A stretch of DNA of 37,064 nucleotides from a bacterium. Its GTDB lineage: Bacteria; UBP15; UBA6099. This document shows, piece after piece, positions 1 to 12,375 of the stretch. A program made the position numbers and the translations under genes. The stretch is taken from assembly GCA_022709505.1 (NCBI GenBank), contig JAKLIR010000001.1, forward strand, positions 1 through 37,064, given 5' to 3'. The notes beneath the pieces are model-generated. The model searched no databases. It saw nothing but the letters and a program-made list of their open reading frames with translations, and was not told the origin of the DNA. Numbering within the stretch: position 1 is the stretch's first letter; the number at the start of each line of letters is the position of its first letter.

Positions 1-1247
1 CCGCGCCCCTTGGACTCCAGCATCTCTGTAATATTTTTCTTTGCATCTTGCCAATCGACTCCGTTATAAGCGCCGGAATTGATGAGTGTGCCGTCGGTAA
101 TAAAAGCCTCGGCGAGAGCGCCGTCTTCATTCCGTTTAGCTTCCGCGTTGTAAATAACTTCTATGATCGGTATGTTGAACTTCACCGCGAACTCGAAGTC
201 GCGCTCGTCGTGCGCCGGCACAGCCATGATCGCCCCGGTCCCGTATCCCATCAGGACATAGTCCGAGATCCATATCGGCACTTTTTCGCCGTTCACCGGA
301 TTGATCGCGTATGCGCCCGTGAACACGCCCGTTTTTTCCTTTTTCACATTCGAGCGGTCGATGTCCGTCTGCTTGCCCGCCCAATCGATGTAGTCCCTTA
401 TTTCCTTTTCGCGCTCCGTGGCGCAGATTTCGAGCACCATCGGATGCTCCGGCGAAAACACCACGTACGTCGCCCCGAAAAGAGTGTCCGGCCGCGTCGT
501 GTAAACGGTGAAATCGCGCTCCGAACCATCCTTCGCGTTGATCGCCGTGAACACCACGTCCGCGCCTTCGCTTCTGCCAATCCAGTTCCGCTGCAGCATC
601 TTCACCGGCTCGGGCCAATCCAGCTTGTCGAGATCCCGCAGCAACCTGTCCGCGTACTCGGTTATCTTCAACATCCACTGACTCAGATTCCTCTTCGAAA
701 CCTCCGCGCCGCAACGCTCGCACGCCCCGTTGATCACTTCCTCGTTCGCAAGCCCCGTTTTGCAGGACGGACACCAGTTGATCGGCATCTCCTTCTTGTA
801 AGCGAGCCCTTCCTTGAACATCTTGACGAAAATCCACTGAGTCCAGTGGTAGTATTCGGGATCGGTCGTGCTGAACTCGCGGTTCCAGTTGTACATAGCG
901 CCGATCTCTTTCAACTGCCGGCGGATGTTGTCAATATTCTTCTGAGTATTCACGCGGGGGTGAATTTTCTTCTTTATCGCGTCGTTCTCCGCGGGCAGGC
1001 CGAACGCGTCCCAGCCCATCGGATGCAGAACGTTGAACCCCCGCAGCGTTTTATATCGAGTGCAAACGTCGGACAACACGTACCCGCGCCAGTGCCCCAC
1101 ATGCAGCCCGCTGCCGGAAGGGTAGGGGAACATGTCGAGACAATAGTACTTCGGCTTATCGCTGTCGTCGTCGCATGTGTGCAGGCCGGATTCCTCCCAG
1201 ACCTGTCTCCATTTAGCCTCAAAATTTTCAAAGTCGTAGTCTCTCAT
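1..1247 (-). CDS. leuS: leucyl-tRNA synthetase, N-terminal ~415 codons; the 3' end runs off the left edge of the window
   Basis: This ORF is absent from the ORF track because it stays open to the window edge. My translation of the reverse strand from the ATG at 1247-1245 gives MRDYDFENFEAKWRQVWEESGL...YCLDMFPYPSGSGLHVGHWRGY (class I HIGH-type motif). It also contains MGWDAFGLPAEN, INWCPSCKTGLANEEV, NWIGRSEG, TTRPDTLFGATYVV and AVPAHDERDFEFA, all typical LeuRS blocks. The Arg-rich + strand ORF 48..1325 is its antisense shadow. Confidence 0.95.
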   Translation of the reverse strand, partial: MRDYDFENFEAKWRQVWEESGLHTCDDDSDKPKYYCLDMFPYPSGSGLHVGHWRGYVLSDVCTRYKTLRGFNVLHPMGWDAFGLPAENDAIKKKIHPRVNTQKNIDNIRRQLKEIGAMYNWNREFSTTDPEYYHWTQWIFVKMFKEGLAYKKEMPINWCPSCKTGLANEEVINGACERCGAEVSKRNLSQWMLKITEYADRLLRDLDKLDWPEPVKMLQRNWIGRSEGADVVFTAINAKDGSERDFTVYTTRPDTLFGATYVVFSPEHPMVLEICATEREKEIRDYIDWAGKQTDIDRSNVKKEKTGVFTGAYAINPVNGEKVPIWISDYVLMGYGTGAIMAVPAHDERDFEFAVKFNIPIIEVIYNAEAKRNEDGALAEAFITDGTLINSGAYNGVDWQDAKKNITEMLESKGR

Positions 1248-1432
1248 GGTTGCCTTATTCATATCCTTATAAATTTAATAACCTTCAGCGCGTGCAAGCC
1301 GCGCGTGTCAGGATGTCTAATTTAGCACATGGCAGCCCTCATTTCAAATATAAACACCATGCGAAAACCGGAAACCGCGCTGAAAAAAAGGAACAAATGA
1401 GAAAAACACGCTCGTGAGCTTGTCGAAGTTTA

Positions 1433-1526: not shown

Positions 1527-1612
1527 GCCGAAGTGGCGGAACTGGTAGACGCAGCAGACTCAAAATCTGCCGAGGATCACTCCTCGTGGGGGTTCGATTC
1601 CCTTCTTCGGCA
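1527..1612 (+). tRNA. tRNA-Leu, anticodon CAA (type II, long variable arm)
   Basis: I folded the cloverleaf by hand. The acceptor stem GCCGAAG pairs with CTTCGGC and is followed by discriminator A. The D arm is GCGGAACTGGTAGACGC. The anticodon stem GCAGA/TCTGC carries the loop CTCAAAA, giving anticodon CAA. The long variable arm is CGAGGA-TCAC-TCCTCG. The T arm is GGGGG-TTCGATT-CCCTT. No CCA is encoded. Confidence 0.9.
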
Positions 1613-1786: not shown

Positions 1787-3244
1787 TCAAACGATCAATT
1801 GGTACACGTTTATCGTGTCAGATTTGCCTTTCACCGATGCCTTGTGAACGCCGGAGAAATCCACTCTGTCCTTCACTTTCATGTATGTCGATTCCCCGAT
1901 CAGTATCGGGACGCTGTTCTTTTTAGAAAATGATTTAATACGGGATGCCGTGTTGACCGTGTCGCCTATGATCGTGTATTCCATACGTCTGATACTGCCG
2001 AGGTTTCCGGCGACGACTTCTCCCGAGTTTATCCCTATGGATATTTTGAATTCCTCTTTATTCTCGTCTCGCCATAGTGCGTTTTGATCGTTCATCTTTT
2101 TAAGAAAATCCACGGCGCAGTTGACGGCTCTCAGTTCGCTGTCGTCCATCGCAAGCGGAGCGCCCCAGAAAGCCATAACGTTGTCTCCGATGAACTTGTC
2201 CAGTGTTCCCTTTGTCTCATATATCGTATCAATGGCGATGCTGAAGTAACGGTTCAGCATGTCGAGCAGAAGCTCGGGCTCTGTTGTTTTAAGTATATCC
2301 TTGAAGTTCGTAATCTCGGTGAACATCACTGTTACGTTCTGGCGCTTTCCACCGAGGTTCAGCTTCGAGGAATCCTTCAAAATTTCTTCCGCCACTGTCC
2401 GAGAGACATAGGACGAAAACGTGTCTCGGATCTTTTCACGTTGCATCTCGTGCATTATCGTCTTATGACGTTTTTCCACGATTTCGAGGGCGTTCTCGAT
2501 GAATTTTATTATTGTTTCCAACAACTTGATGGTTTCGCTCCCCAAACGCTCGAGGCCGCTGTTCGCAAGAACTATGATACCCCGGTTCCGCCCGCCGAAC
2601 GCCAGCCTGAAAGCCAGAAGCTGGCTTACTGCTTCCATTTCCTCTGCCGGACCGTAGTACTCAAAACGTGTATCTTCGAGAACATTGTTGCTCAAAAGAT
2701 ATTTTCCGTCCTGTATTACTTTATAGAAGATGTGATCATCGGGCAGAGGTTCGTCTTCGGGATTCAATCTGCTTTTGAGCTGATCGTTTTCGTCGAGAAG
2801 GAATATCTCCACCGTTTCAGATTTGCCGAGTTCGCTGAATTGTTTTTCAAGCATCCGAAAGATCATGTCGGCTGTTGCGTTTTCAATGAGTCCGATCAAT
2901 ATTTCCCTGCATCGCTGCATCATCGCATATTCTTCGTTCCCTTTGCGGATGACGTGCCCCAGATGAACGCTCAAAACGGTGATCACGACCATCGCGACCA
3001 TGTAGTTTATTCCATAGACGGAATTCTCCGAAACCTGCATGGCGAGAAACGGGGCTTGAAAAACAATGAGCACGAAACCGATGAAAATCGAGCCGGTGCG
3101 CCTGAAATGAATTCCCGTATAAAGGATAGGGATGCCCATGAATAATCGCGTCCATTCGTATAGAGGCCATCTGTAGTAATGGGATGCTCCTATTAATGAG
3201 CAGGAGATAACTGAAGATATTATTATAATCAATATCTTTTTCAA
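1787..3244 (-). CDS. cassette 1 gene D: membrane-anchored (about 4 TM) GAF-like class III nucleotide cyclase, C2-like variant
   Basis: 485 aa. Four N-terminal hydrophobic helices occupy residues ~4-98. The central region ends in a GAF-like block (RGIIVLANSG...IENALE). The C-terminal cyclase homology domain reads VTVMFTEITNF...DKFIGDNVMAFWGAP...IGINSGEVVAGNLGS..MEYTIIGDTVNTASRI. Key residues are E310 (normally the first metal Asp), K350, D354, T424, N431 and R435. The start codon overlaps the stop of the upstream gene in ATGA (3241-3244). Confidence 0.9.
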   Translation of the reverse strand: MKKILIIIISSVISCSLIGASHYYRWPLYEWTRLFMGIPILYTGIHFRRTGSIFIGFVLIVFQAPFLAMQVSENSVYGINYMVAMVVITVLSVHLGHVIRKGNEEYAMMQRCREILIGLIENATADMIFRMLEKQFSELGKSETVEIFLLDENDQLKSRLNPEDEPLPDDHIFYKVIQDGKYLLSNNVLEDTRFEYYGPAEEMEAVSQLLAFRLAFGGRNRGIIVLANSGLERLGSETIKLLETIIKFIENALEIVEKRHKTIMHEMQREKIRDTFSSYVSRTVAEEILKDSSKLNLGGKRQNVTVMFTEITNFKDILKTTEPELLLDMLNRYFSIAIDTIYETKGTLDKFIGDNVMAFWGAPLAMDDSELRAVNCAVDFLKKMNDQNALWRDENKEEFKISIGINSGEVVAGNLGSIRRMEYTIIGDTVNTASRIKSFSKKNSVPILIGESTYMKVKDRVDFSGVHKASVKGKSDTINVYQLIV

Positions 3245-4152
3245 GTGATTCCCACTCCCTGAAGGATGGCCTGAAGTACGGAAAGTATTACTGCGGACAC
3301 GAGGGCGTTTCTGAATCTGGCGAACGTCAGGCTTGCGAGCAGAATTGAAATAAGTGAATACGTGATGAAGCCGCCCAACGCTTGAAAAAAGTTAACTTTG
3401 CCTATGAAATAGAAAAAGACGAACTGAGGCAGCGAGATAATTGATATTAGCGATAGCAGAATGAAAATATTGCCGAGTAGTCCGGGTCCCTTCGCCTGAA
3501 GGTTTTTCCATACGGTGAAAATAAAGATATATATCACGAGACTCATTGGGAATGTCGTGGAAATTTCAGAGGCGAATCTCCATATGTGAAATTCGAACTT
3601 CAGCCCGTAAGCGTTCATTCCGATTATTGTGTACACCGCTATTAGCGCCGAAGGAACGATCGCCACGAGAGCGTCTGTAATCAATTTGCTTTTTCTTACT
3701 CCAAGTTTCTCCATAACTTCGGGTTCCGTCCATGTCCAATAGAAAATCTGCCATGTGGCCAGCAACCAGTATGGGGTTTCAAGGGTATGGTTTCCATAAG
3801 TGACTATCAGATACGTTTCAAATATCACAACGGAAACAAATAGCAGGATAAGCTTTCGTGAGTCAAAATGGCCCGTGATATAAAACGCGCCCGGCAGAAG
3901 GATCAGAAAATATACGGAGTCGATAAGAATTCTCGCGCGGAACGAACCGAAATAATCCGTAACATTTAAGTATTGCAGCGTCGTGCATAAAATACCGCAG
4001 CAGAAGACGAACAAAAGGCTTTTTCGGAAAACGGGCTCGGACGTCAGTCTGACGCGAATCCGGCCCGCCGCAAGTTTTTCCACAAGATCGAGGCGTGAAA
4101 ACCATTCGCCGTCGGGAACAATATTTTTCGTCTGTTCATTCATAGCCTTCAC
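3241..4152 (-). CDS. cassette 1 gene C: polytopic integral membrane protein of unknown function
   Basis: 303 aa with about 8 hydrophobic helices. It is colinear with the paralog at 9079..9984. Shared motifs are YW[TM]W[TS][ED]P..M..[LM]G, YG[LF]KF, FPM, VW[KN][NR]L and F.[RK]FR.AL. It has ATGA overlaps at both ends. I recognise no catalytic motif. Confidence 0.8.
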   Translation of the reverse strand: MKAMNEQTKNIVPDGEWFSRLDLVEKLAAGRIRVRLTSEPVFRKSLLFVFCCGILCTTLQYLNVTDYFGSFRARILIDSVYFLILLPGAFYITGHFDSRKLILLFVSVVIFETYLIVTYGNHTLETPYWLLATWQIFYWTWTEPEVMEKLGVRKSKLITDALVAIVPSALIAVYTIIGMNAYGLKFEFHIWRFASEISTTFPMSLVIYIFIFTVWKNLQAKGPGLLGNIFILLSLISIISLPQFVFFYFIGKVNFFQALGGFITYSLISILLASLTFARFRNALVSAVILSVLQAILQGVGIT

Positions 4153-5000
4153 TTCAGAATCGGCATGGATTTAAGAAACAAATAATAAGCAAGATATGAA
4201 AACAGCACCATTCTTGTTGAACGGCAGAAGAAAAACGCCATTCCCGTCGGGAGTTGGGTGACTACGGCGACAGAGAAAATGCTTAACAGACCCATCAAAA
4301 TCTTTCCGGAACCAACGGCCGACGGGAACCACAAGACGAACATGAATAAGATGTTGATGACAATCAGAACCGAGGGTTCGTATCGCATACCCAGAAGACG
4401 TCTTGTCATGATACCGTAAGTGAATCCGAAAACGATGAAATAGTTAGCGATGCCGTTCATGAAAAAAATGAGATAGCCGCCCAAGGTAAGGGGTGTGAAC
4501 TTGAAGTGTCCTACTCTTGTCAGAAAATAATAAACTAAAGTAATGGTTAATGTTGAAAGGAGTATGGAGAAAAGGATTTCCATGGCGAAGTTTCTTTTTC
4601 CAGAGTAGCCCAAGCGAAAGAGAAAATCCCGCTCGTTGATCAGAAACATGTACAGGCAGAGCGCCGCCGGCATGAAGAAGAGCGCGAACCAAGCCGAGAG
4701 GCCGAGCAAAAGAGGGGCCTGTCCTGATGCGAAAAGTATGCAGAATCCGGCGAACCACGCCCAACTGCGTTTCGAGGCCCCGCCGAGCAGGAACAGACCC
4801 AATGGGTAAACGATTAGAATCGTTTTGATCATATTGCCGGTTTCTATCAGCACCGCATTGTGGAGTATATTCAGCAGAAAGGTGCAGAATGACATCGTGA
4901 CTATGATCAGCGCCGCTTTTCGAAACGAGTGGTCAGCAAACAAATTCATACGCTGCGAACCGGGATAGTAATCCGATGTGGTTCTGAAATAATATTTCAC
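4149..5000 (-). CDS. cassette 1 gene B: polytopic integral membrane protein of unknown function
   Basis: 283 aa with about 8-9 hydrophobic helices. It is colinear with the paralog at 10001..10855. Shared motifs are YF[RK]...[DN]YYPG.QR at the N-terminus, LGY[ST]G, RR[LF]L.MRYE, F.RSTR and YYLFL. It has ATGA overlaps at both ends. Confidence 0.8.
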   Translation of the reverse strand: MKYYFRTTSDYYPGSQRMNLFADHSFRKAALIIVTMSFCTFLLNILHNAVLIETGNMIKTILIVYPLGLFLLGGASKRSWAWFAGFCILFASGQAPLLLGLSAWFALFFMPAALCLYMFLINERDFLFRLGYSGKRNFAMEILFSILLSTLTITLVYYFLTRVGHFKFTPLTLGGYLIFFMNGIANYFIVFGFTYGIMTRRLLGMRYEPSVLIVINILFMFVLWFPSAVGSGKILMGLLSIFSVAVVTQLPTGMAFFFCRSTRMVLFSYLAYYLFLKSMPILK

Positions 5001-6502
5001 TTATCTAATCCCTTAAGCTCATAAAGTCCGCCGAGCGCGCCGTTCTCGCGGTCCGGGAGTTTCTCGAGCCGTATCATGGTTTTCGCGGTCTGCTCTGAAA
5101 GAATGATCTTCGTATTATATTCTTTAGTCAGTGATTCAATCTCCATGGCTTTTTCGACTTCCTCGCCGAGAATCGTGAACTCCCTCTTTCTTTCGTCTCC
5201 GATGTTGCCGATGAGCACATTACAAGTGTGAAGCCCGATCCCCGAGCGGAAAACGGGCCGTCCTTCTTCGATCCATTTTTCGCAGAGTTTTTCGAGTTTT
5301 TCGGACATGGCCGCCGCGGCGCGCGCCGCGTGTTCAGCGTGTTCGGCGTCGTGCGCCGGAGCCCCCCAATAGGCGACGATGCAGTCTCCTATAAACTTGT
5401 CCACGGTACCCTGATGTTCGAATATCACGTTTACTATTTCCGTAAAATATTCGTTGAGCTGCTCCAAAATCTGTTCCGGCGTCATTTTTTCCGAGATTCG
5501 CGTGAAATCACGGATGTCGGACACAAGAATAGTGACTTCCTGCCATCGTCCTTTCAGAAGGTCGGGGTTCTGAAGTATGTGCTCTGCCACGGATGAGGAG
5601 ACAAATCTTGAAAAAAGGTCCCGCATTTGCTCTTCGCGAAGTTTTTCGAATTCCTTGCTGCGCTCCTGCCTTATGTTGTGAATCACGGAGGCGGCTATCC
5701 CAGCCATCAGTTGCGAGACAGAGACATCATTGTCGGTGAACGACTCGCTCCTGTTACTCCCCGCGGCCGAGAGAGCGCCGTAAACAACGCCTCCGGATTC
5801 CACGGGCGTGATTATCATCGGTTTCGGAGGGATATCAGTGCCGGTCTTTTTCAACCTCGGGTCATCCGCCGCGCTATGAATGACAAGTGCGGACTTTTCC
5901 CTTGCGGACCATATCAGGGGATGATTCTCCGCAAGTTTCCATCCTGTTGTCACAGCACTGCGCCCGTTCGCGGCCGCGAATACGGGCCATTCGGCGGAGT
6001 CTCCGTCTGTCATCAGCAGCGTCGCCGCGATCTGAGCGTTGATCAGCGAAACAACCCCCTCCGCCAGCCGGAGCATCACGCCTTTCTCCTCCGTTTCGCC
6101 TGCGATGTTCATAACGATGTCGGAGATTGCAGATACGCTTTTCTGCGCCAGCCGACCGCGTCCGATTGTGTAGCCTATGAATATTCCAAAGAACAATATG
6201 AAAGCAATCATTACCGCGGCGCTGTAAAGACCGTATTCTTCACCAGCTATGGCCTTGTCCATCCGCAGCAAAGGCATGAACAGCAAGGCGCACAAGATTC
6301 CGCCTGTGATTCCGCCGGTCTGTCCGTAAGCTATCCCCAATTGATAAAGCGGTAAGAGTACCATGAAACGGTAGTATTGGTGAAACGGCAGATTATAAAG
6401 AGCTGTAACATATATAACAACGAAGCACACAACGATTTCCGTTAAAACAAATATCCAACGGCCACGGTCAGTGAGTTTGTTAAAGGATAATCTCTTGTTC
6501 AT
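4997..6502 (-). CDS. cassette 1 gene A: membrane-anchored GAF class III nucleotide cyclase homolog, C1-like variant
   Basis: 501 aa with N-terminal TM helices over residues ~15-115. The GAF-like block reads PMIITPVESGGVVYGAL...FTDNDVSVSQLMAGIAASVIHN. The cyclase domain reads VTILVSDIRDFT...VDKFIGDCIVAYWGAP...GIGLHTCNVLIGNIGD..EFTILGEEVEKAMEIES. Both metal Asp residues are present (D329, D373). The transition-state Asn and Arg positions are E450 and E454. Confidence 0.9.
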   Translation of the reverse strand: MNKRLSFNKLTDRGRWIFVLTEIVVCFVVIYVTALYNLPFHQYYRFMVLLPLYQLGIAYGQTGGITGGILCALLFMPLLRMDKAIAGEEYGLYSAAVMIAFILFFGIFIGYTIGRGRLAQKSVSAISDIVMNIAGETEEKGVMLRLAEGVVSLINAQIAATLLMTDGDSAEWPVFAAANGRSAVTTGWKLAENHPLIWSAREKSALVIHSAADDPRLKKTGTDIPPKPMIITPVESGGVVYGALSAAGSNRSESFTDNDVSVSQLMAGIAASVIHNIRQERSKEFEKLREEQMRDLFSRFVSSSVAEHILQNPDLLKGRWQEVTILVSDIRDFTRISEKMTPEQILEQLNEYFTEIVNVIFEHQGTVDKFIGDCIVAYWGAPAHDAEHAEHAARAAAAMSEKLEKLCEKWIEEGRPVFRSGIGLHTCNVLIGNIGDERKREFTILGEEVEKAMEIESLTKEYNTKIILSEQTAKTMIRLEKLPDRENGALGGLYELKGLDK

Positions 6503-6575: not shown

Positions 6576-6806
6576 ATGTCAACTTGGATTCGCCGTTTGA
6601 TTACATTTCGGACAATTTCGTATGGGGATAATGATAAAGCTATTGATTATTATCTTCGCTACCTTTGTATTAATGAAAATGAAAAAGAAAAAGACGAAAT
6701 CAACGGTCGTGTTAACGAGTTAGTTGAATCAAAAAAAGCCTGTATATCCGGCTTGACAACGAGCCCGATTTTGATAGAAGCTGTTGTATCAAGAGGCGGG
6801 ATATGA
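6576..6806 (+). CDS. possible small ORF (76 aa) of unknown function
   Basis: Its stop overlaps the downstream ATG in ATGA (6803-6806), and its amino-acid composition is not obviously random. The ribosome-binding site is weak and I see no recognisable motif. It may simply be the 5' leader of the downstream gene. Confidence 0.25.
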   Translation: MSTWIRRLITFRTISYGDNDKAIDYYLRYLCINENEKEKDEINGRVNELVESKKACISGLTTSPILIEAVVSRGGI

Positions 6807-7477
6807 CAAAGAGTAGGGCGATAATCGCAAGTTACGTGGGTGTGCTGGTCATAGCATGTCCGATCTTCATTGCGGGCGGCAGGTTGTTATATTGGCAGGC
6901 AATACTTTATTTGATTGTGGCGATGATAGGTACGACGATTAACCATCTACTTACACCCAAGGGTTCCGATTTGACAGTCGATAGAGCGACAAGAGCGCGT
7001 GAAGGCGTTAAGTGGGACAAAGCGTTGCTCGGCGTCATGTTTCTTCTGAGCATTATCACTTTTGTTGTGGCGGGGCTTGATTCGGGAAGATTCAAATGGT
7101 CCGGAGAATTTCCTGTGCCGGTGACGGCGGCGGGCGTGTTTTTGATGACGGCCGGCCAAATTCTGTTCGCATTGGCGAAACGCGTCAATTCTTTTTTCTC
7201 AAGCACTGTCAACATAGATGCGAAACGGGAGCATGTCGTTTGCGAGAAGGGGCCGTACGGATTTGTACGCCACCCCGGATATCTTGGAATGATAATTTCA
7301 CTCGTCGGATTTCCGCTGATATTGAATTCCTATTGGACCTTCATTTTCGTGGCGATGTCCGTCGGCGTTTTGGTGCTTCGGACATACTTGGAAGACGGCT
7401 TCCTCAAGGCGCGGCTTAATGGATATACGGATTATGCGCTGAAGACCAAGTGGCGTCTTATCCCATATATATTCTGA
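6803..7477 (+). CDS. isoprenylcysteine carboxyl methyltransferase (ICMT)/PEMT-family membrane methyltransferase
   Basis: 224 aa with about 5 TM helices. The C-terminal block VCEKGPYGFVRHPGYLGMIISLVGFPLIL...RTYLEDGFL carries the RHP.Y.G and E[DE] signature of the ICMT family. A GAGG-like ribosome-binding site precedes the ATG. Confidence 0.8.
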   Translation: MTKSRAIIASYVGVLVIACPIFIAGGRLLYWQAILYLIVAMIGTTINHLLTPKGSDLTVDRATRAREGVKWDKALLGVMFLLSIITFVVAGLDSGRFKWSGEFPVPVTAAGVFLMTAGQILFALAKRVNSFFSSTVNIDAKREHVVCEKGPYGFVRHPGYLGMIISLVGFPLILNSYWTFIFVAMSVGVLVLRTYLEDGFLKARLNGYTDYALKTKWRLIPYIF

Positions 7478-7624
7478 AAACCTTTCCGGACATTAATAAA
7501 TACCGTTAAGTCTAAGTTCATAATTAAGTTGCTGAAAAGAGCCGTCTGTAATAGCCGATGGGTGCGAAGCTGTGAGCGTAATAGGCAGGTTTTGTTGAGG
7601 TATGAATGAGAATACAGAGAGTTG

Positions 7625-9082
7625 TCAAAAAGATAGTTGATAAACGGTTATAGCTCCGGACTTTCCTTTTACGACTGCTTCGTGTTTTCGTTCGACTTTC
7701 ACGCTGTCTTTTACTCTTGCGAATGTCGGTTCCCCTATGAGAATGGGGATGCCCTTGGATGTGGAGAGAGTTTTTATGCGGGCCGCCGTGTTTACGGTGT
7801 CGCCGACGATCGTGTATTCCATGCGGCGGATGCTTCCGATGTTACCCGCGATAACCGCGCCGCTGTTGATCCCGATGCAGACGTTGAACGGTTGCATTCC
7901 GTCGCGTTCCCAGCGCGCATTGAGCATGTCGAGCTTACGATGAAGTTCTCGCGCGCAGGAGATGGCTTTTCGTTCGCTGTCGGGGTTTGCCAACGGCGCG
8001 CCCCAGAAAGCCATTATGTTGTCGCCTATGAATTTATCGAGAGTGCCGTCGTACTCGAAAATGGTGTCTATGGCGGTCGAGAAATATTCATTGAGCCTCG
8101 AAAGCAACTCTTCCGGAGGCAATGTCTTCAAGAGAGCGCTGAAGTTGGTGACCTCCGTGAACATGACGGTTACATCGCGGACTTCGCCTCCGAGGTCGAG
8201 TTTGTCCGGATTCTTGAGAATTTCCTCGGCAACCGTGTGAGACAGATAGGAAGAGAAGGTGTCTCGAATCCTGTTTCGCTGAATCTCATGCTGGATTCTG
8301 CCTCGAAGTTTTTCTCCGAGATCGAGAGCGTTTTCCACTGACTGTTTTATTGCGATGAGATATGGCAGTCTATCCTTTTCGAAGTAGTCGTCGGTGGAGT
8401 TTGCGATTGAGATGACACCTCGGGCGCGGTCGCCGTATTCGAGAGGGAAAACCGCAAGTCTGGAAACGCGTTCCTTTTGGTTCTCGGGGCCGTAGTAGGT
8501 CAAGCGTGAGTCCCGCGCCGTGTTCGTACTCGCCATGAACTCGCGCGTTTCGGCCACGGTATAGAAAATGTGCCCCTCCGGGAGCGGTTCGAGGTCTGGA
8601 TTCTTTCGAGGTCTGAGTTTTCCGTCTTCTCCGAACATGAAAGTCTCGACCTCATCCGATTTGCCTGCATCCGCGAAAAAGGCTTCAAGGGTCGAAAGAA
8701 GACTGTCTTCTTCAACGCTCCTGCGCATAGACTGTATCAGGTCGGTGGTTTGTTGCAGCGTAGCCGAGTTTTCCCTGCTTTTCCGAAGTATGTGCCCGAA
8801 CACCACGGAAAAGATGGACACTATTATCGCCACCAGCACAACTTCCACTCCGAACCCGAAGCCGCCGGCATATTGCATGGCGAACAGAGGCCCCTCCGCG
8901 AGCACGAGGATTATTGCGATGGATATGGCGCTTGTGCGGCGGTAGTTGACGCCCGCGTAAATGATGGGCGCCGCGATCAGCAGGCGCGTCCAGCCGACAA
9001 GATTCCAATTGTATTGATGAAATGCATATATAACCGCGAGCGAAGATATGCAAAGAAAAATGAGCGTAGCGATTTTCTTCAT
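7625..9082 (-). CDS. cassette 2 gene D: membrane-anchored GAF-like class III nucleotide cyclase, C2-like variant
   Basis: 485 aa, aligning without gaps to the 1787..3244 product. It has the same key residues: VTVMFTEVTNF (E310), DKFIGDNIMAFWGAP (K350, D354) and MEYTIVGDTVNTAARI (T424, N431, R435). It shares an ATGA overlap with the upstream gene at 9079-9082. Confidence 0.9.
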   Translation of the reverse strand: MKKIATLIFLCISSLAVIYAFHQYNWNLVGWTRLLIAAPIIYAGVNYRRTSAISIAIILVLAEGPLFAMQYAGGFGFGVEVVLVAIIVSIFSVVFGHILRKSRENSATLQQTTDLIQSMRRSVEEDSLLSTLEAFFADAGKSDEVETFMFGEDGKLRPRKNPDLEPLPEGHIFYTVAETREFMASTNTARDSRLTYYGPENQKERVSRLAVFPLEYGDRARGVISIANSTDDYFEKDRLPYLIAIKQSVENALDLGEKLRGRIQHEIQRNRIRDTFSSYLSHTVAEEILKNPDKLDLGGEVRDVTVMFTEVTNFSALLKTLPPEELLSRLNEYFSTAIDTIFEYDGTLDKFIGDNIMAFWGAPLANPDSERKAISCARELHRKLDMLNARWERDGMQPFNVCIGINSGAVIAGNIGSIRRMEYTIVGDTVNTAARIKTLSTSKGIPILIGEPTFARVKDSVKVERKHEAVVKGKSGAITVYQLSF

Positions 9083-9984
9083 ATAAGTCCGTAGATCAGA
9101 AGCAGATTGGACATCGCCGTGAACAGGCAGGCGGAAGGCAGAGCGCTCCTGAACTTTCTGAATGTGAGATGTGTGGTGAGGGCCATGATGCAGGTGATGG
9201 CCGCGAACCCTCCGAAAGACTGTGCCGGTGGTGTGGATGTCGCGATTCCCACGAGGAGGAAGACGGGCGCGTTCAACGCCGCCGACATTATTCCGAGAGC
9301 AAGAAGGATGCTGATGGGCGACAAACCCAGAGTTTTCAGCCTATTCCATACTATGTGAAAGAAACCGAAGATCGTGATGTACATGGGAAATACCTGCACT
9401 GTATTGAAAAAGACTCTCCAAGGCTCAAGCCTGAATTTGAACCCGTAGTTACTCACGCCCCATGCGAAGTAACCCGCGATTGTAACGGCGAGCAGCAGCC
9501 CCGTGAGCAAGTGAATGTGCATGTTTTTTTTAGCGAAGCCCATGTCTTTCATCATGCCGGGATCGGACCACATCCAGTAGATCGGAAGCCATAATCCCAG
9601 AACGATGATAAAGCCGGCGAGAACCGGCTTGTGGTAAAACACAGTGTTCCATGTTTGGAATAAGATTGTATTGCCGATCAGCATCAGAGAGTGCTTTTTG
9701 TCGAGTTTTCCCGCAATACGAAGCGCACTTCCGAACATGAGAACATAGTACACTCCGACGAGGACGTCCTTCTCTTCTACGCTAATGATTTTTCTTGAGT
9801 AGAGAATTGAGAGAATGCCTGTGATGATGCCTGCGACTGCTAAAACCGCGGATGCTTTTGTAATCAGATTTTGGCTGAAGATACCGTGGTTCGCCCATAC
9901 TTCACCGGAGGCTTCGAGCACGTGAATGGAAGATGCGGTGCGGGCCGCGCAGTGGATGTTTTCGTGATTTGCCGTCTCTTTCAT
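9079..9984 (-). CDS. cassette 2 gene C: polytopic integral membrane protein of unknown function
   Basis: 301 aa and a paralog of the 3241..4152 product, sharing the motifs listed there. A 16-nt spacer containing AGGA separates it from the upstream gene. Confidence 0.8.
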   Translation of the reverse strand: MKETANHENIHCAARTASSIHVLEASGEVWANHGIFSQNLITKASAVLAVAGIITGILSILYSRKIISVEEKDVLVGVYYVLMFGSALRIAGKLDKKHSLMLIGNTILFQTWNTVFYHKPVLAGFIIVLGLWLPIYWMWSDPGMMKDMGFAKKNMHIHLLTGLLLAVTIAGYFAWGVSNYGFKFRLEPWRVFFNTVQVFPMYITIFGFFHIVWNRLKTLGLSPISILLALGIMSAALNAPVFLLVGIATSTPPAQSFGGFAAITCIMALTTHLTFRKFRSALPSACLFTAMSNLLLIYGLI

Positions 9985-10000
9985 TTATTAGGACATCCTA

Positions 10001-10855
10001 TTAAAAGACTACGGTCTGAAGGAAAAGATAATAGATAACGTAGGCGGCAAGAAGGGGCCTTGTCGAACGGAAGAAATTGAAAGCCAGACCGAGTGAAGCT
10101 TGAGATGCGATGGCTTGAAGTACAGCGCCCGCTATCATGTAGTGGACCTTCATGTTGTGGCGGCCGATCAGCGATAGCATCCAATATACCGACATGATGG
10201 TTGTGTTAAGTGCGATAGGCGCCGTAACTTCATAACGCATGTCGAGAAAGCGCCGCATTAGCAGTCCCAGCAGTATGCCCCAGAATGGGAAGTAGTAAAG
10301 CGTGCATATAGATAAGTGCAAAAGATATTTTGTCACCGGAAGAACTTCAAAACCACTTTTTCTTATTAATACCTGACCAATCCATGTGTATGAGATAAGA
10401 ACGCCGGCTATCAAAATCGTGAAGACGATCTCGATAATGGGTTTTGAACTGCCTGTATAGCCGAGTTCGGCGAGCACATGCGGAGCGGTCCTGTTCGCCA
10501 TCGCGAGGCAGATCAGGGACACGGGAATGAGTGCAAGAAAGAAATACGAAGCGCCGAGGGTGACGGAAATGGTCGCGGCGGCGTAGAGAGCGGCGGCGGC
10601 GGCGTACCAGAGCCAACCTGAGGCGGGCATGCCCCCCGCGAGCGAAAATGAGGCGGGGATCATATATATAAGGAATAAAAGAATGAAGAATATATCTCTG
10701 TTAGGTCCGGGGGTGAATGAAACCGCTCCCACCACCTGCATCACTCCTAAAGGAATGAAAGTAATGAGGCATCGACGGAATAGCCTGTCTGACAGGATTC
10801 TGAATCTCTGTAAACCGGGGTAGTAGTTCTCATTCGATTTGAAATATATATTCAT
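10001..10855 (-). CDS. cassette 2 gene B: polytopic integral membrane protein of unknown function
   Basis: 284 aa and a paralog of the 4149..5000 product, sharing NYYPGLQR, LGYTG, RRFLDMRYE, FFRSTRP and YYLFL. It shares an ATGA overlap with the upstream gene at 10852-10855. Confidence 0.8.
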   Translation of the reverse strand: MNIYFKSNENYYPGLQRFRILSDRLFRRCLITFIPLGVMQVVGAVSFTPGPNRDIFFILLFLIYMIPASFSLAGGMPASGWLWYAAAAALYAAATISVTLGASYFFLALIPVSLICLAMANRTAPHVLAELGYTGSSKPIIEIVFTILIAGVLISYTWIGQVLIRKSGFEVLPVTKYLLHLSICTLYYFPFWGILLGLLMRRFLDMRYEVTAPIALNTTIMSVYWMLSLIGRHNMKVHYMIAGAVLQAIASQASLGLAFNFFRSTRPLLAAYVIYYLFLQTVVF

Positions 10856-12375
10856 GCATTCTCCGATATCGGCGTGAACAGCTTTCCGTATTCTTCGGGG
10901 GCGCCGGTAATGGAAGTCAGCCGGACGCCGGACGCGCGAGACGCGGTTTCGGACACTATTATCTTTGCGTCGAGATTTTTCGTCAGAGCCTCCAAGCTCA
11001 TTGCTTTTTCAACTTCCTCACCCATGATAGTGAACGCTTTCTTCCTTTCATCGCCGATGTTGCCCATGAGCACCCTGCATGTGTGGATTGCTATGCCTGT
11101 CGCATAGGCGGGCATTCCACGCTCGGCCCAAGAAACGTTGAGCGTTTCGAGCGCCCGGGCCATGGCGGCCGCAGCCTTTATCGCGTTCGCTGCATGCATG
11201 GGATCAGGCGCCGGCGCTCCCCAGTATGCAATGATGCAGTCGCCTATGAACTTGTCTATCGTTCCTTTGTTGTCAAAGACGACGTCCACCATAGCGGTGA
11301 AGTACTCGTTCAACTGCGTCACGAGCTCGTGAGCGGGGATTTTTTCGGACATGGCCGTGAAGCCCCTTATGTCCGACACGAGCAATGTTATCTCCTTCCA
11401 GTTCCCAGCGAGAAGGTCCGGATGTTCGAGGATGTAGTCCGCCACTGTGGAGGAAACGTATCGGGAGAACAATTCCCTCATTCGTTCCTCCCGCATTATT
11501 TCCTCCTGCCGGTTTTTTTCCTGCACCATATTGTGGATTGCGTCTCCGGATGTTTCCGCTATGGTTTTCGCGATCTCGAGGTCTTTTTCGGAAAAGTTTT
11601 CGCCGTTCTTTTTGTCGGTGAGGAGGATTGCGCCGTAAACGTCGTTCTCGTAAGAGACGGGTATGGACATGAATGATTTCAAATAATGCGCGGGAGCGTC
11701 GAGAGACAATCGGGAATCGTTTGCGGCGCTGTTTGTGGCGAGGGATGTGTTATTCCGGACGCTCCACAGCAGAACGTTATCTTGCGGAGGAGAGGAGTCG
11801 GGTATGTGTTTTTCATCGTCGTAAGGGCTTGTTATGCGCCAATCCGAGGAGCCATCCACACTGTGTCGCACGAGCGCCGCGCATCTCGTTGCCTCAGTGA
11901 GCGAGGCCGCCGCTTCGCATGAGCGAAGCATGACGGACCTTTCATCGGGCTCCGCGAATAACTCCATGAATATTCCGGATAGATCTTCGACATATCTGTG
12001 GGTTTTGCGCGCCTCGCCGACTGTGCCGCCAACTACCACGCCGAATAAAGTGTACAGAACAAGGAGTGCGATGGATGAATAACTGTCGAACTGAAACATT
12101 GCGTTCGGCGTCTGCACGGGAAGGATCGGCACGAAAAGAAAAAGGGACAGCAGGCTTAACATTATGCCGCCGCTATATCCGAACGCCGCGCCCGCCTGAT
12201 ACAGCGGGATCAGCAAGAAAAACCTAAGATGGTTGTGGTACGGCCACGCCATATAAAGAGAAACTATTATGATTATATAAATCAGTGCAAACTCGGCAAG
12301 AATAAAAGCCCATCTCGTTTTGTCAGAAATTCTTCGCTTTCCCTTTTTTGGGGTTTTCTTATTCACGCGCGTCAC
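10852..12375 (-). CDS. cassette 2 gene A: membrane-anchored GAF class III nucleotide cyclase homolog, C1-like variant
   Basis: 507 aa with a GTG start immediately after an in-frame stop. The GAF-like block reads SFMSIPVSYENDVYGAILLTDKKNGENFSEKDLEIAKTIAETSGDAIHN. The cyclase domain reads ITLLVSDIRGFT (D335), IDKFIGDCIIAYWGAP (K375, D379) and AFTIMGEEVEKAMSLEA. The Asn position is E456 and the Arg position is S460. Confidence 0.88.
   Translation of the reverse strand: MTRVNKKTPKKGKRRISDKTRWAFILAEFALIYIIIIVSLYMAWPYHNHLRFFLLIPLYQAGAAFGYSGGIMLSLLSLFLFVPILPVQTPNAMFQFDSYSSIALLVLYTLFGVVVGGTVGEARKTHRYVEDLSGIFMELFAEPDERSVMLRSCEAAASLTEATRCAALVRHSVDGSSDWRITSPYDDEKHIPDSSPPQDNVLLWSVRNNTSLATNSAANDSRLSLDAPAHYLKSFMSIPVSYENDVYGAILLTDKKNGENFSEKDLEIAKTIAETSGDAIHNMVQEKNRQEEIMREERMRELFSRYVSSTVADYILEHPDLLAGNWKEITLLVSDIRGFTAMSEKIPAHELVTQLNEYFTAMVDVVFDNKGTIDKFIGDCIIAYWGAPAPDPMHAANAIKAAAAMARALETLNVSWAERGMPAYATGIAIHTCRVLMGNIGDERKKAFTIMGEEVEKAMSLEALTKNLDAKIIVSETASRASGVRLTSITGAPEEYGKLFTPISENA

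Follow-up and report, generated by a model that had tools for sequence, protein, structure and literature searches.

Can the active site of a bacterial class III cyclase be divided between the products of two genes of one operon? The question is raised by a window of 37,064 nucleotides (the whole stretch of DNA that was analysed; contig JAKLIR010000001.1, positions 1 to 37,064 of the forward strand, assembly GCA_022709505.1) from a bacterium of the lineage UBP15; UBA6099, which carries two four-gene cassettes, A-B-C-D, in which A and D code for class III cyclases and B and C for membrane proteins. The active site of such cyclases lies at a dimer interface and is formed by six canonical residues, and heterodimeric or pseudo-heterodimeric forms are well known in eukaryotes, namely the transmembrane adenylyl cyclases (tmAC), the soluble adenylyl cyclase (sAC), soluble guanylate cyclase (sGC) and RGC/NeoR. 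Reviews describe the bacterial enzymes as monomers that homodimerise into two equivalent sites, and this homodimerisation has been called a fundamental difference from the eukaryotes (PMC4821796, PMC9552081). An earlier reading of the window from its letters alone (the sequence-only reading) had proposed that A and D have complementary catalytic defects and would work as a heterodimer with one complete active site. Our comparative evidence, i.e., reciprocal constraint, operon linkage, a natural fusion and a resemblance to the C1 and C2 halves of tmAC, agrees with that proposal: a heterodimer of A and D with a single catalytic site, probably for making cyclic AMP (cAMP), is in our view likely. 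That the partnership is also obligate is suggested by the complementary defects, not proven by them.

Catalytic residues of the paired cyclases

The genes of the two cassettes are listed here; as the halves of tmAC are also called C1 and C2, we write "gene C1" and "gene C2" for the third genes.

4997-6502, minus strand: A1, 501 aa; membrane region (about 4 transmembrane segments), GAF domain and class III cyclase domain; C1-like half
4149-5000, minus strand: B1, 283 aa; polytopic membrane protein without a known family; 4-bp overlap of its start with the stop of A1
3241-4152, minus strand: gene C1, polytopic membrane protein of 303 aa, no known family; 4-bp overlaps with B1 and D1
1787-3244, minus strand: D1, 485 aa; membrane region (about 4 transmembrane segments), divergent GAF domain and class III cyclase domain; C2-like half; TTG start at 3244
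10852-12375, minus strand: A2, paralogue of A1 (42% identity)
10001-10855, minus strand: B2, paralogue of B1 (31% identity)
9079-9984, minus strand: gene C2, paralogue of gene C1 (29% identity)
7625-9082, minus strand: D2, paralogue of D1 (48% identity)

By these identities the two cassettes are old paralogues of each other, and within a cassette A and D are about 25% identical over their full length. Of the six gene junctions within the two cassettes, five show a 4-bp overlap. A and D are separate genes, with about 1.75 kb between them and B and C in the gap, so that no single-chain pair is encoded. The public gene call for D1 (P0001, 450 aa) begins 35 codons too late, leaving out 3139-3244 on the minus strand; we placed the start at the TTG at 3244 because this makes D1 co-linear with D2 and its orthologues, which begin "MKK...", and overlaps the stop of gene C1 by 4 bp. 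All four cyclases match the Pfam family PF00211 well above its cut-off of 21.9 bits (A1 69.1, A2 53.9, D1 96.0 and D2 80.6 bits), and the GAF domain is clear in A1 (Pfam GAF_2, 46 bits). The N-termini of A and D each show three strong hydropathy segments, to which a fourth, amphipathic helix read from the sequence can be added, giving about four transmembrane segments followed by the GAF domain.

At the six canonical positions, in the order metal site 1, substrate Lys, metal site 2, substrate Thr, transition-state Asn and transition-state Arg, the four proteins have the following residues:

A1: D329 (GAC, 5516-5518), K369, D373, T443, E450 (GAA, 5153-5155), E454 (GAG, 5141-5143)
A2: D335, K375, D379, T449, E456 (Asn position), S460 (Arg position)
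D1: E310 (GAG, 2315-2317, first metal position), K350, D354, T424, N431, R435
D2: E310 (GAG, 8153-8155), K350, D354, T424, N431, R435

These assignments depend on the alignment register, which was checked with phmmer alignments to the solved cyclases CyaC (1WC0/1WC1), Cya2 (2W01) and CyaB (3R5G). The top PDB matches of the window proteins are class III cyclases (E-values of 1e-23 to 1e-33), the best being Cya2, CyaB and CyaC. On the A side, "VSDIRDFT" of A1 aligns to "FSDIVGFT" of CyaC and "DKFIGD" to "DKFVGD", and the substrate Thr aligns with the Thr of CyaC "FTAIG". Further along, A1 "FTILGEEVEKAMEIE" aligns to "FTAIGPSVNIAARLQ", and therefore the Asn position is occupied by Glu450 and the Arg position by Glu454, where the CyaC reference motif is "VNIAAR". 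On the D side, "MFTEITNF" of D1 aligns to "LTSDLRGF" and "FFSDIRGF", which places Glu310 at the first metal position, and "YTIIGDTVNTASRI" aligns to "YGVVGAQVNLTYRI" and "YTIIGREVNLASRL", confirming Thr424, Asn431 and Arg435. These alignments show that the register is not shifted, and the residue calls of the sequence-only reading hold throughout: both metal-binding Asp kept in the A-type proteins with Asn replaced by Glu and Arg by Glu or Ser, and Lys, the second Asp, Thr, Asn and Arg kept in both D-type proteins with Glu in place of the first Asp, down to the codons. That reading had not mentioned that the A proteins also retain the substrate Lys and Thr. The complete set of six residues is thus absent from A alone (no Asn, no Arg) and from D alone (no first Asp), and is reached by A and D together.

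Reciprocal conservation, operon linkage and a natural fusion

Database searches showed that the A-type and D-type proteins are two compact families found only in metagenomes, with a sharp drop in score to generic cyclases after each. The D-type family comprises about 37 clusters of full-length proteins, 37-57% identical to D1, with 38 sequences entering the residue counts; the A-type family comprises about 32 clusters, 38-49% identical to A1, with 34 sequences counted. The counts are as follows:

Metal site 1: D-type E 35, K 2, Q 1 (never Asp); A-type D 34/34
Substrate Lys: D-type K 38/38; A-type K 34/34
Metal site 2: D-type D 34, E 2, N 1, S 1; A-type D 34/34
Substrate Thr: D-type T 38/38; A-type T 33/34
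Transition-state Asn: D-type N 38/38; A-type E 17, D 8, N 4, Q 2, R 2, A 1
Transition-state Arg: D-type R 38/38; A-type ten different residues (R 11)

The minimum number of changes by Fitch parsimony on neighbour-joining (NJ) trees follows the same division. In the A family it is zero at each of the Asp, Lys and Asp positions and at least 16 and at least 19 at the Asn and Arg positions, respectively; in the D family it is zero at Lys, Thr, Asn and Arg. When all columns of the cyclase domain were scanned, without bias, for conservation in one family together with variability in the other, the canonical positions emerged without prior input. The scan added the phosphate-loop Thr334 (in the motif "D-I-x-x-F-T"), which never varies in A but does in D, and the contrast of "GIxxH" in A versus "GIN" in D. 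Both Asp and the phosphate-loop Thr are kept by A in 40/40 sequences. This is the signature to be expected if A were used only for the metal and phosphate half of an active site and D only for the base, ribose and transition-state half. The pattern is far beyond chance, because it recurs in both protein families and in all of the 14 cassettes described below.

Some differences between the families are themselves conserved. An acidic residue stands at the Asn position of A in 31/40 sequences; in A1/D1 numbering, Glu456 of A is invariant, with Lys437 at this place in D, and Lys439 of A stands against Arg420 of D. Going beyond simple loss, the conserved differences at A 450 and 456 and at D 310 and 437 may be features of the second pocket or of the interface.

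A single protein, P0130, joins the two families. This 530-aa protein, present on six contigs (e.g., at 7001-8593 of both L088 and L089) with no B, C or D adjoining, is the only stand-alone relative that we found, and it has one cyclase domain, not two. Up to residue 430 it is of A-type (scoring 640 bits as A-type and 199 as D-type) and from 431 to 530 of D-type (140 bits as D-type and 54 as A-type); the change from A to D falls between about residues 420 and 431. It thereby combines the Asp pair and Lys of A with the Thr, Asn and Arg of D, such that all six residues stand in one chain. The sole observed collapse of the operon to one gene thus leaves a complete six-residue set in that gene, and P0130 looks like the product of a deletion between A and D that would have re-created a homodimer-competent enzyme.

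The conservation counts and P0130 bear on a rival view, in which D would be the real enzyme, acting as a homodimer with Glu310 replacing the metal Asp, and A a non-catalytic pseudo-cyclase with a regulatory or unrelated role. D does have five of the six canonical residues and a carboxylate at the sixth, and the Glu and the second Asp are each kept in the great majority of D-type sequences (35/38 and 34/38). However, metal site 1 is Lys or Gln in three D lineages and metal site 2 is Glu, Asn or Ser in four, while Lys, Thr, Asn and Arg remain invariant; A keeps its Asp pair and Thr in 40/40 sequences even though these would be unusable in an A-A site devoid of Asn and Arg; and the collapse to a single gene took its Asp pair from A, not from D. 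We regard this view as improbable.

To follow the linkage of the two cyclases beyond the window we fetched 12 further cassettes, which with the two in the window makes 14. Thirteen have the order A-B-C-D (among the further ones L081, L082, L083, L087, L167 and L210-L215, 11/12) and one the order A-C-D (L085), all tightly packed; at every locus that was reached via a normal A-type or D-type protein, A and D lie in the same operon in the same order, mostly with 4-bp overlaps of stop and start between the genes, and with flanking genes that are unrelated between loci. Of the 13 called cassettes (without L167), 11 have a 4-bp overlap at the C-D junction. In all 14 cassettes A has the residues D-K-D-T and D has [E/Q/K]-K-[D/E/S/N]-T-N-R, so a complementary split of the C1/C2 type, with one protein carrying the Asp pair and its partner Lys, the specificity residue, Asn and Arg, can be read in 14/14. 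The three-gene variant without B (L085, 4558-8461; the same genes occur in L086) has a D protein with Glu at both metal positions, and its single membrane protein is 53% identical to the product of gene C2 of the window. The public annotation of all copies checked says only "adenylate/guanylate cyclase domain-containing protein".

The A proteins lack Asn in 12 of the 14 cassettes. Those of L214 (6001-10791) and L215 (6001-10759) retain both Asn and Arg, and hence all six residues, with D still having Glu at metal site 1. As these two proteins keep Asn and Arg, the defect of A is a relaxed constraint and not a fixed feature. Because L215, whose A protein has not lost this pair, is the closest relative of the second window cassette (A 60% and D 64% identical), A2 lost it comparatively recently. 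Taken with the high number of parsimony changes, this relationship suggests a repeated loss of Asn and Arg from A, as for dispensable residues. The sequence-only reading had concluded from the two paralogous pairs of the window that the asymmetry is kept by selection. Its recurrence across the 14 cassettes and the reciprocal constraint in both families are in line with this, with the exception of the A-side defect, which is not maintained as such.

The same two cassettes, and the pair in the window, raise the possibility that the partnership is not obligate: A-D dimers might exist beside A-A and D-D dimers and, in the window, beside A1-D2 and A2-D1, the output being set by the dimers that form. 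In keeping with this, the window has two neighbouring cassettes that are 42-48% identical in their cyclases, some A proteins (those of L214 and L215) have a full catalytic set, and promiscuous dimerisation of class III domains is seen in engineered systems (PMC4821796). Nevertheless, in the window an A-A dimer would be devoid of Asn and Arg and a D-D dimer of the first Asp, so that a complete site would arise only in mixed dimers, and the tight operon coupling favours cognate pairing. We hold such mixed pairing to be rather unlikely, and it would in any case refine the A-D heterodimer and not contradict it. Some genomes may carry several cassette paralogues, as the window does, which would allow cross-pairing: the cassettes L081, L082 and L212 lie on three large contigs (3.17 Mb, 1.63 Mb and 0.85 Mb) of one ENA assembly, ERZ21869602.

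Other signalling genes were seen beside individual cassettes: a 301-aa cyclase, a cyclic-nucleotide (cNMP)-binding protein, a receiver domain and a multi-GAF protein at L081 (10532-16437), a GAF-GAF-HD protein at L085 (10700-12316) and a HAMP-cyclase at L087 (9265-10989). LpxK and outer-membrane efflux genes adjoin some cassettes, which suggests that the hosts are diderm cells. Two other ways of finding cassettes were given up. A genome scan built from a D-type alignment picked up generic motifs, with no family member among the 80 loci listed and hidden Markov model scores of at most 296, versus more than 650 for true members; and the metagenome DNA pattern RRMEYT..GD proved common in ordinary cyclases, only one of 120 loci (L167) being a cassette.

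A proposed complementary heterodimer and its known counterparts

Searching the A and D family profiles against all PDB sequences gave a test of C1/C2 likeness. The best region for the A profile is in the C1 half and that for the D profile in the C2 half of AC8 (411-574 and 949-1163), AC5 (432-617 and 1068-1251), AC9 (390-547 and 1161-1237) and sAC (45-197 and 267-417). Isolated VC1 scores 56.9 bits with the A profile and 28.4 bits with the D profile; isolated IIC2 scores 42.9 bits with the D profile and is not among the 60 best matches of the A profile. The sequence-only reading had remarked that the form "MF..I.NF" of D resembles C2, and this likeness is supported because the profile test is independent of the choice of residues. 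The local motifs "GDC" and "GIxxH" of A and "MF..I.NF" and "GIN" of D likewise have parallels in C1 and C2.

Over the whole gene A and D are paralogous and share one architecture of transmembrane, GAF and cyclase modules, as judged from hhalign comparisons of the corresponding parts (probabilities: transmembrane 97%, E 2e-11; GAF 97%, E 2e-10; cyclase 100%; negative control of the A transmembrane region against the D GAF domain 0.1%). In a midpoint-rooted NJ tree of the cyclase domains with outgroups, A and D are each monophyletic; we did not take this tree as proof that they are sisters, which midpoint rooting cannot show, and the paralogy rests on the transmembrane and GAF modules.

On this basis we propose that A and D split the class III active site between them in a head-to-tail heterodimer. 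In the catalytic pocket, A would supply Asp329, Asp373 and the phosphate-loop Thr334, and D the adenine-specifying Lys350 and Thr424, the ribose-positioning Asn431 and the transition-state Arg435, and this complete pocket would convert ATP to cAMP. It should use ATP because the Lys/Thr pair is that of the class IIIb adenylate cyclases, as in CyaC; this combination of Lys with Thr, not Asp, is found in D (K350/T424, 38/38) and in A (K369, 34/34; T443, 33/34), and the sequence-only suggestion of ATP thus appears likely. The second pocket would combine Glu310 and Asp354 of D with Lys369, Thr443, Glu450 and Glu454 of A; it would be catalytically dead and possibly regulatory. Perhaps it is still used, because A keeps Lys and Thr while D keeps the Glu (35/38) and the second Asp (34/38); a regulatory role of this pseudo-site is speculative and has a possible analogue in the fungal RGC1/NeoR pair (PMC12264004). 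The four genes would be co-transcribed and probably translationally coupled, with inputs presumably through the GAF domains and the membrane parts.

Several points weigh against this proposal. The A-D complex is deduced from sequence comparison. The A proteins of L214 and L215, having all six residues, could act as homodimers. Glu can bind metals and the second Asp is kept in most D proteins, so that a weakly active D homodimer is possible where the Glu is present. Glu310 of D and the Lys and Thr of A are over-conserved for a dead pocket, which hints at a function outside the model. The cyclase domains of A and D are separated by a distance of 0.68, larger than that of either to generic homodimeric cyclases (0.61-0.62), and alone do not prove that the two are sisters; the larger distance fits divergence in opposite directions without proving it. 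Finally, the families comprise only about 35-40 lineages, all metagenomic.

Of the known systems, the mammalian tmAC (AC1-9) are close to the proposed heterodimer: C1 supplies the metal Asp pair and the phosphate loop and C2 the Lys, the base-specifying residue, Asn and Arg, giving one active site and one degenerate pocket. Unlike tmAC, which is one chain, A and D are two genes; they are IIIb-like, with Thr and not Asp as the second specificity residue; each has about four transmembrane segments and a GAF domain where the tmAC halves have six transmembrane segments, and the two hexahelical membrane domains of tmAC are not found in them; D keeps a Glu carboxylate and the second Asp, of which C2 has neither; and B and C are extra. 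The asymmetry of A and D probably arose independently of tmAC. A Lys/Thr specificity pair is shared with sAC (ADCY10), CyaC and CyaB1. In sAC, which unlike A and D is a soluble single chain, the degenerate pocket is regulatory and binds bicarbonate via the C1 Lys. Those bacterial class IIIb enzymes that have been characterised to date differ from the A-D model in being homodimers with two complete sites.

As in the alpha and beta subunits of sGC, where the metal Asp pair is on one polypeptide and the base-recognition and transition-state residues are on the other, A and D are separate homologous subunits, here encoded in one operon; that the heterodimer would be the only active form is our reading of their residues. 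The A profile prefers sGC alpha (47 bits versus 33-35 bits), and the D profile does not separate alpha from beta. sGC differs in being eukaryotic and GTP-specific, with an H-NOX/PAS/coiled-coil architecture; in common with the A-D model, it has a pseudo-symmetric non-catalytic pocket (PMC3591389). The fungal RGC1 and NeoR are products of two linked genes that form a heterodimeric class III cyclase with one catalytic and one putative regulatory site (PMC12264004). They differ from A and D in that each subunit has the full canonical set, making the asymmetry functional and invisible in sequence, and in being eukaryotic, with rhodopsin sensors and GTP as the substrate. An artificial parallel is offered by the inactive Rv1625c mutants D300A and R376A, which regain activity when co-expressed (PMC4821796): one monomer is devoid of a metal Asp and the other of the transition-state Arg, the same logic as in A-D, whereas the wild type is a homodimer with two active sites.

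The complementary split has so far been described mainly in animal and fungal enzymes, and the natural bacterial two-gene form appears to be new as far as we could find: no report of one was found in a literature search that did not cover several subscription reviews, such that an earlier description is possible. The R. centenum genes gcyB and gcyC have been described as "non-catalytic subunits" of a guanylyl cyclase (PMC4681086). If our proposal is true, the cassettes would provide a natural bacterial counter-example to the homodimer rule, caught at the stage of "duplicated but not fused", with one lineage having re-fused the halves. They would also make it possible to study, in a simple and genetically tractable system, why cyclases come to have one active site and a pseudo-site, and to test what the pseudo-site does.

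The membrane proteins and the surroundings of the cassettes

B and C are remotely homologous to each other (in hhalign, probability 96%, E 3e-9, 240 columns), and neither has a match in Pfam or NCBIfam even at E<=10. Orthologues of B are present in 13 and of C in all of the 14 cassettes, and both evolve fast, with 22-35% identity between cassettes. Only 30 representatives of the C family turned up among 1.84 billion proteins, the full-length matches being 294-312 aa long and five being shorter fragments; a word-indexed search retrieved only two relatives. An AlphaFold2 model of C built from 27 sequences is all-helical, with a pLDDT (predicted local distance difference test) of 87.1 and a predicted template-modelling score of 0.83; an earlier model from three sequences (pLDDT 48.7) was discarded. 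Compared with PDB folds the model gave no match at E<=0.001 (best E 0.29, template-modelling score at most 0.31). No support was found for B and C as degenerate CPBP/CAAX-type proteases. They would constitute two new membrane-protein families with this cyclase as their only known context, and from that context they presumably assemble with the membrane domains of A and D.

The lack of a known function for B and C, and the absence of some canonical residues from each cyclase taken alone, could also be accommodated if neither A nor D made a cyclic nucleotide, both being degenerate domains that serve, together with B and C in a membrane complex, as scaffolds or sensors. Strict invariance of the complementary residues (the Asp pair and Thr334 of A, and Lys, Thr, Asn and Arg of D) over 37-57% sequence divergence would be unexpected of scaffolds, and we consider this highly improbable. 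Returning to the A-D heterodimer, the homology of the A and D modules and the remote homology of B and C make the operon resemble a duplicated cyclase-plus-membrane-protein unit that turned hetero-oligomeric. As a doubtful but possible extension, A-B-C-D might be one pseudo-two-fold-symmetric membrane machine, in which an A-D cyclase is docked to a B-C heterodimer of an unseen fold. Both pairs would derive from a duplicated ancestor of cyclase plus membrane protein, the C1/C2-like asymmetry would be an independent bacterial acquisition, the dead pocket would be allosteric (for a nucleotide or bicarbonate) and B and C would act as a ligand receptor or transporter-sensor.

The remaining features near the cassettes of the window are the following:

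6803-7477, plus strand: ICMT/PEMT-like membrane protein (isoprenylcysteine carboxyl methyltransferase-like, E 1e-10), between the cassettes
1616-1640: strong hairpin with a T-run, just downstream of D1
1527-1612, plus strand: tRNA (55.6 bits), downstream of D1
1-1260, minus strand: fragment of a leucyl-tRNA-synthetase-like gene, inside which the window begins, downstream of D1

No ICMT/PEMT-like gene was called beside the cassettes in other loci, and this gene is probably unrelated to them. Neither phage- or defence-like genes nor an rRNA gene were found in the window. The long open reading frames at 48-1325 (plus strand) and 136-837 (minus strand) are shadows of the leucyl-tRNA-synthetase-like gene. 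The rest of the window is ordinary chromosome, with a Cache histidine kinase and a sigma-54 regulator, a transhydrogenase, a Kup transporter and glycosidases.

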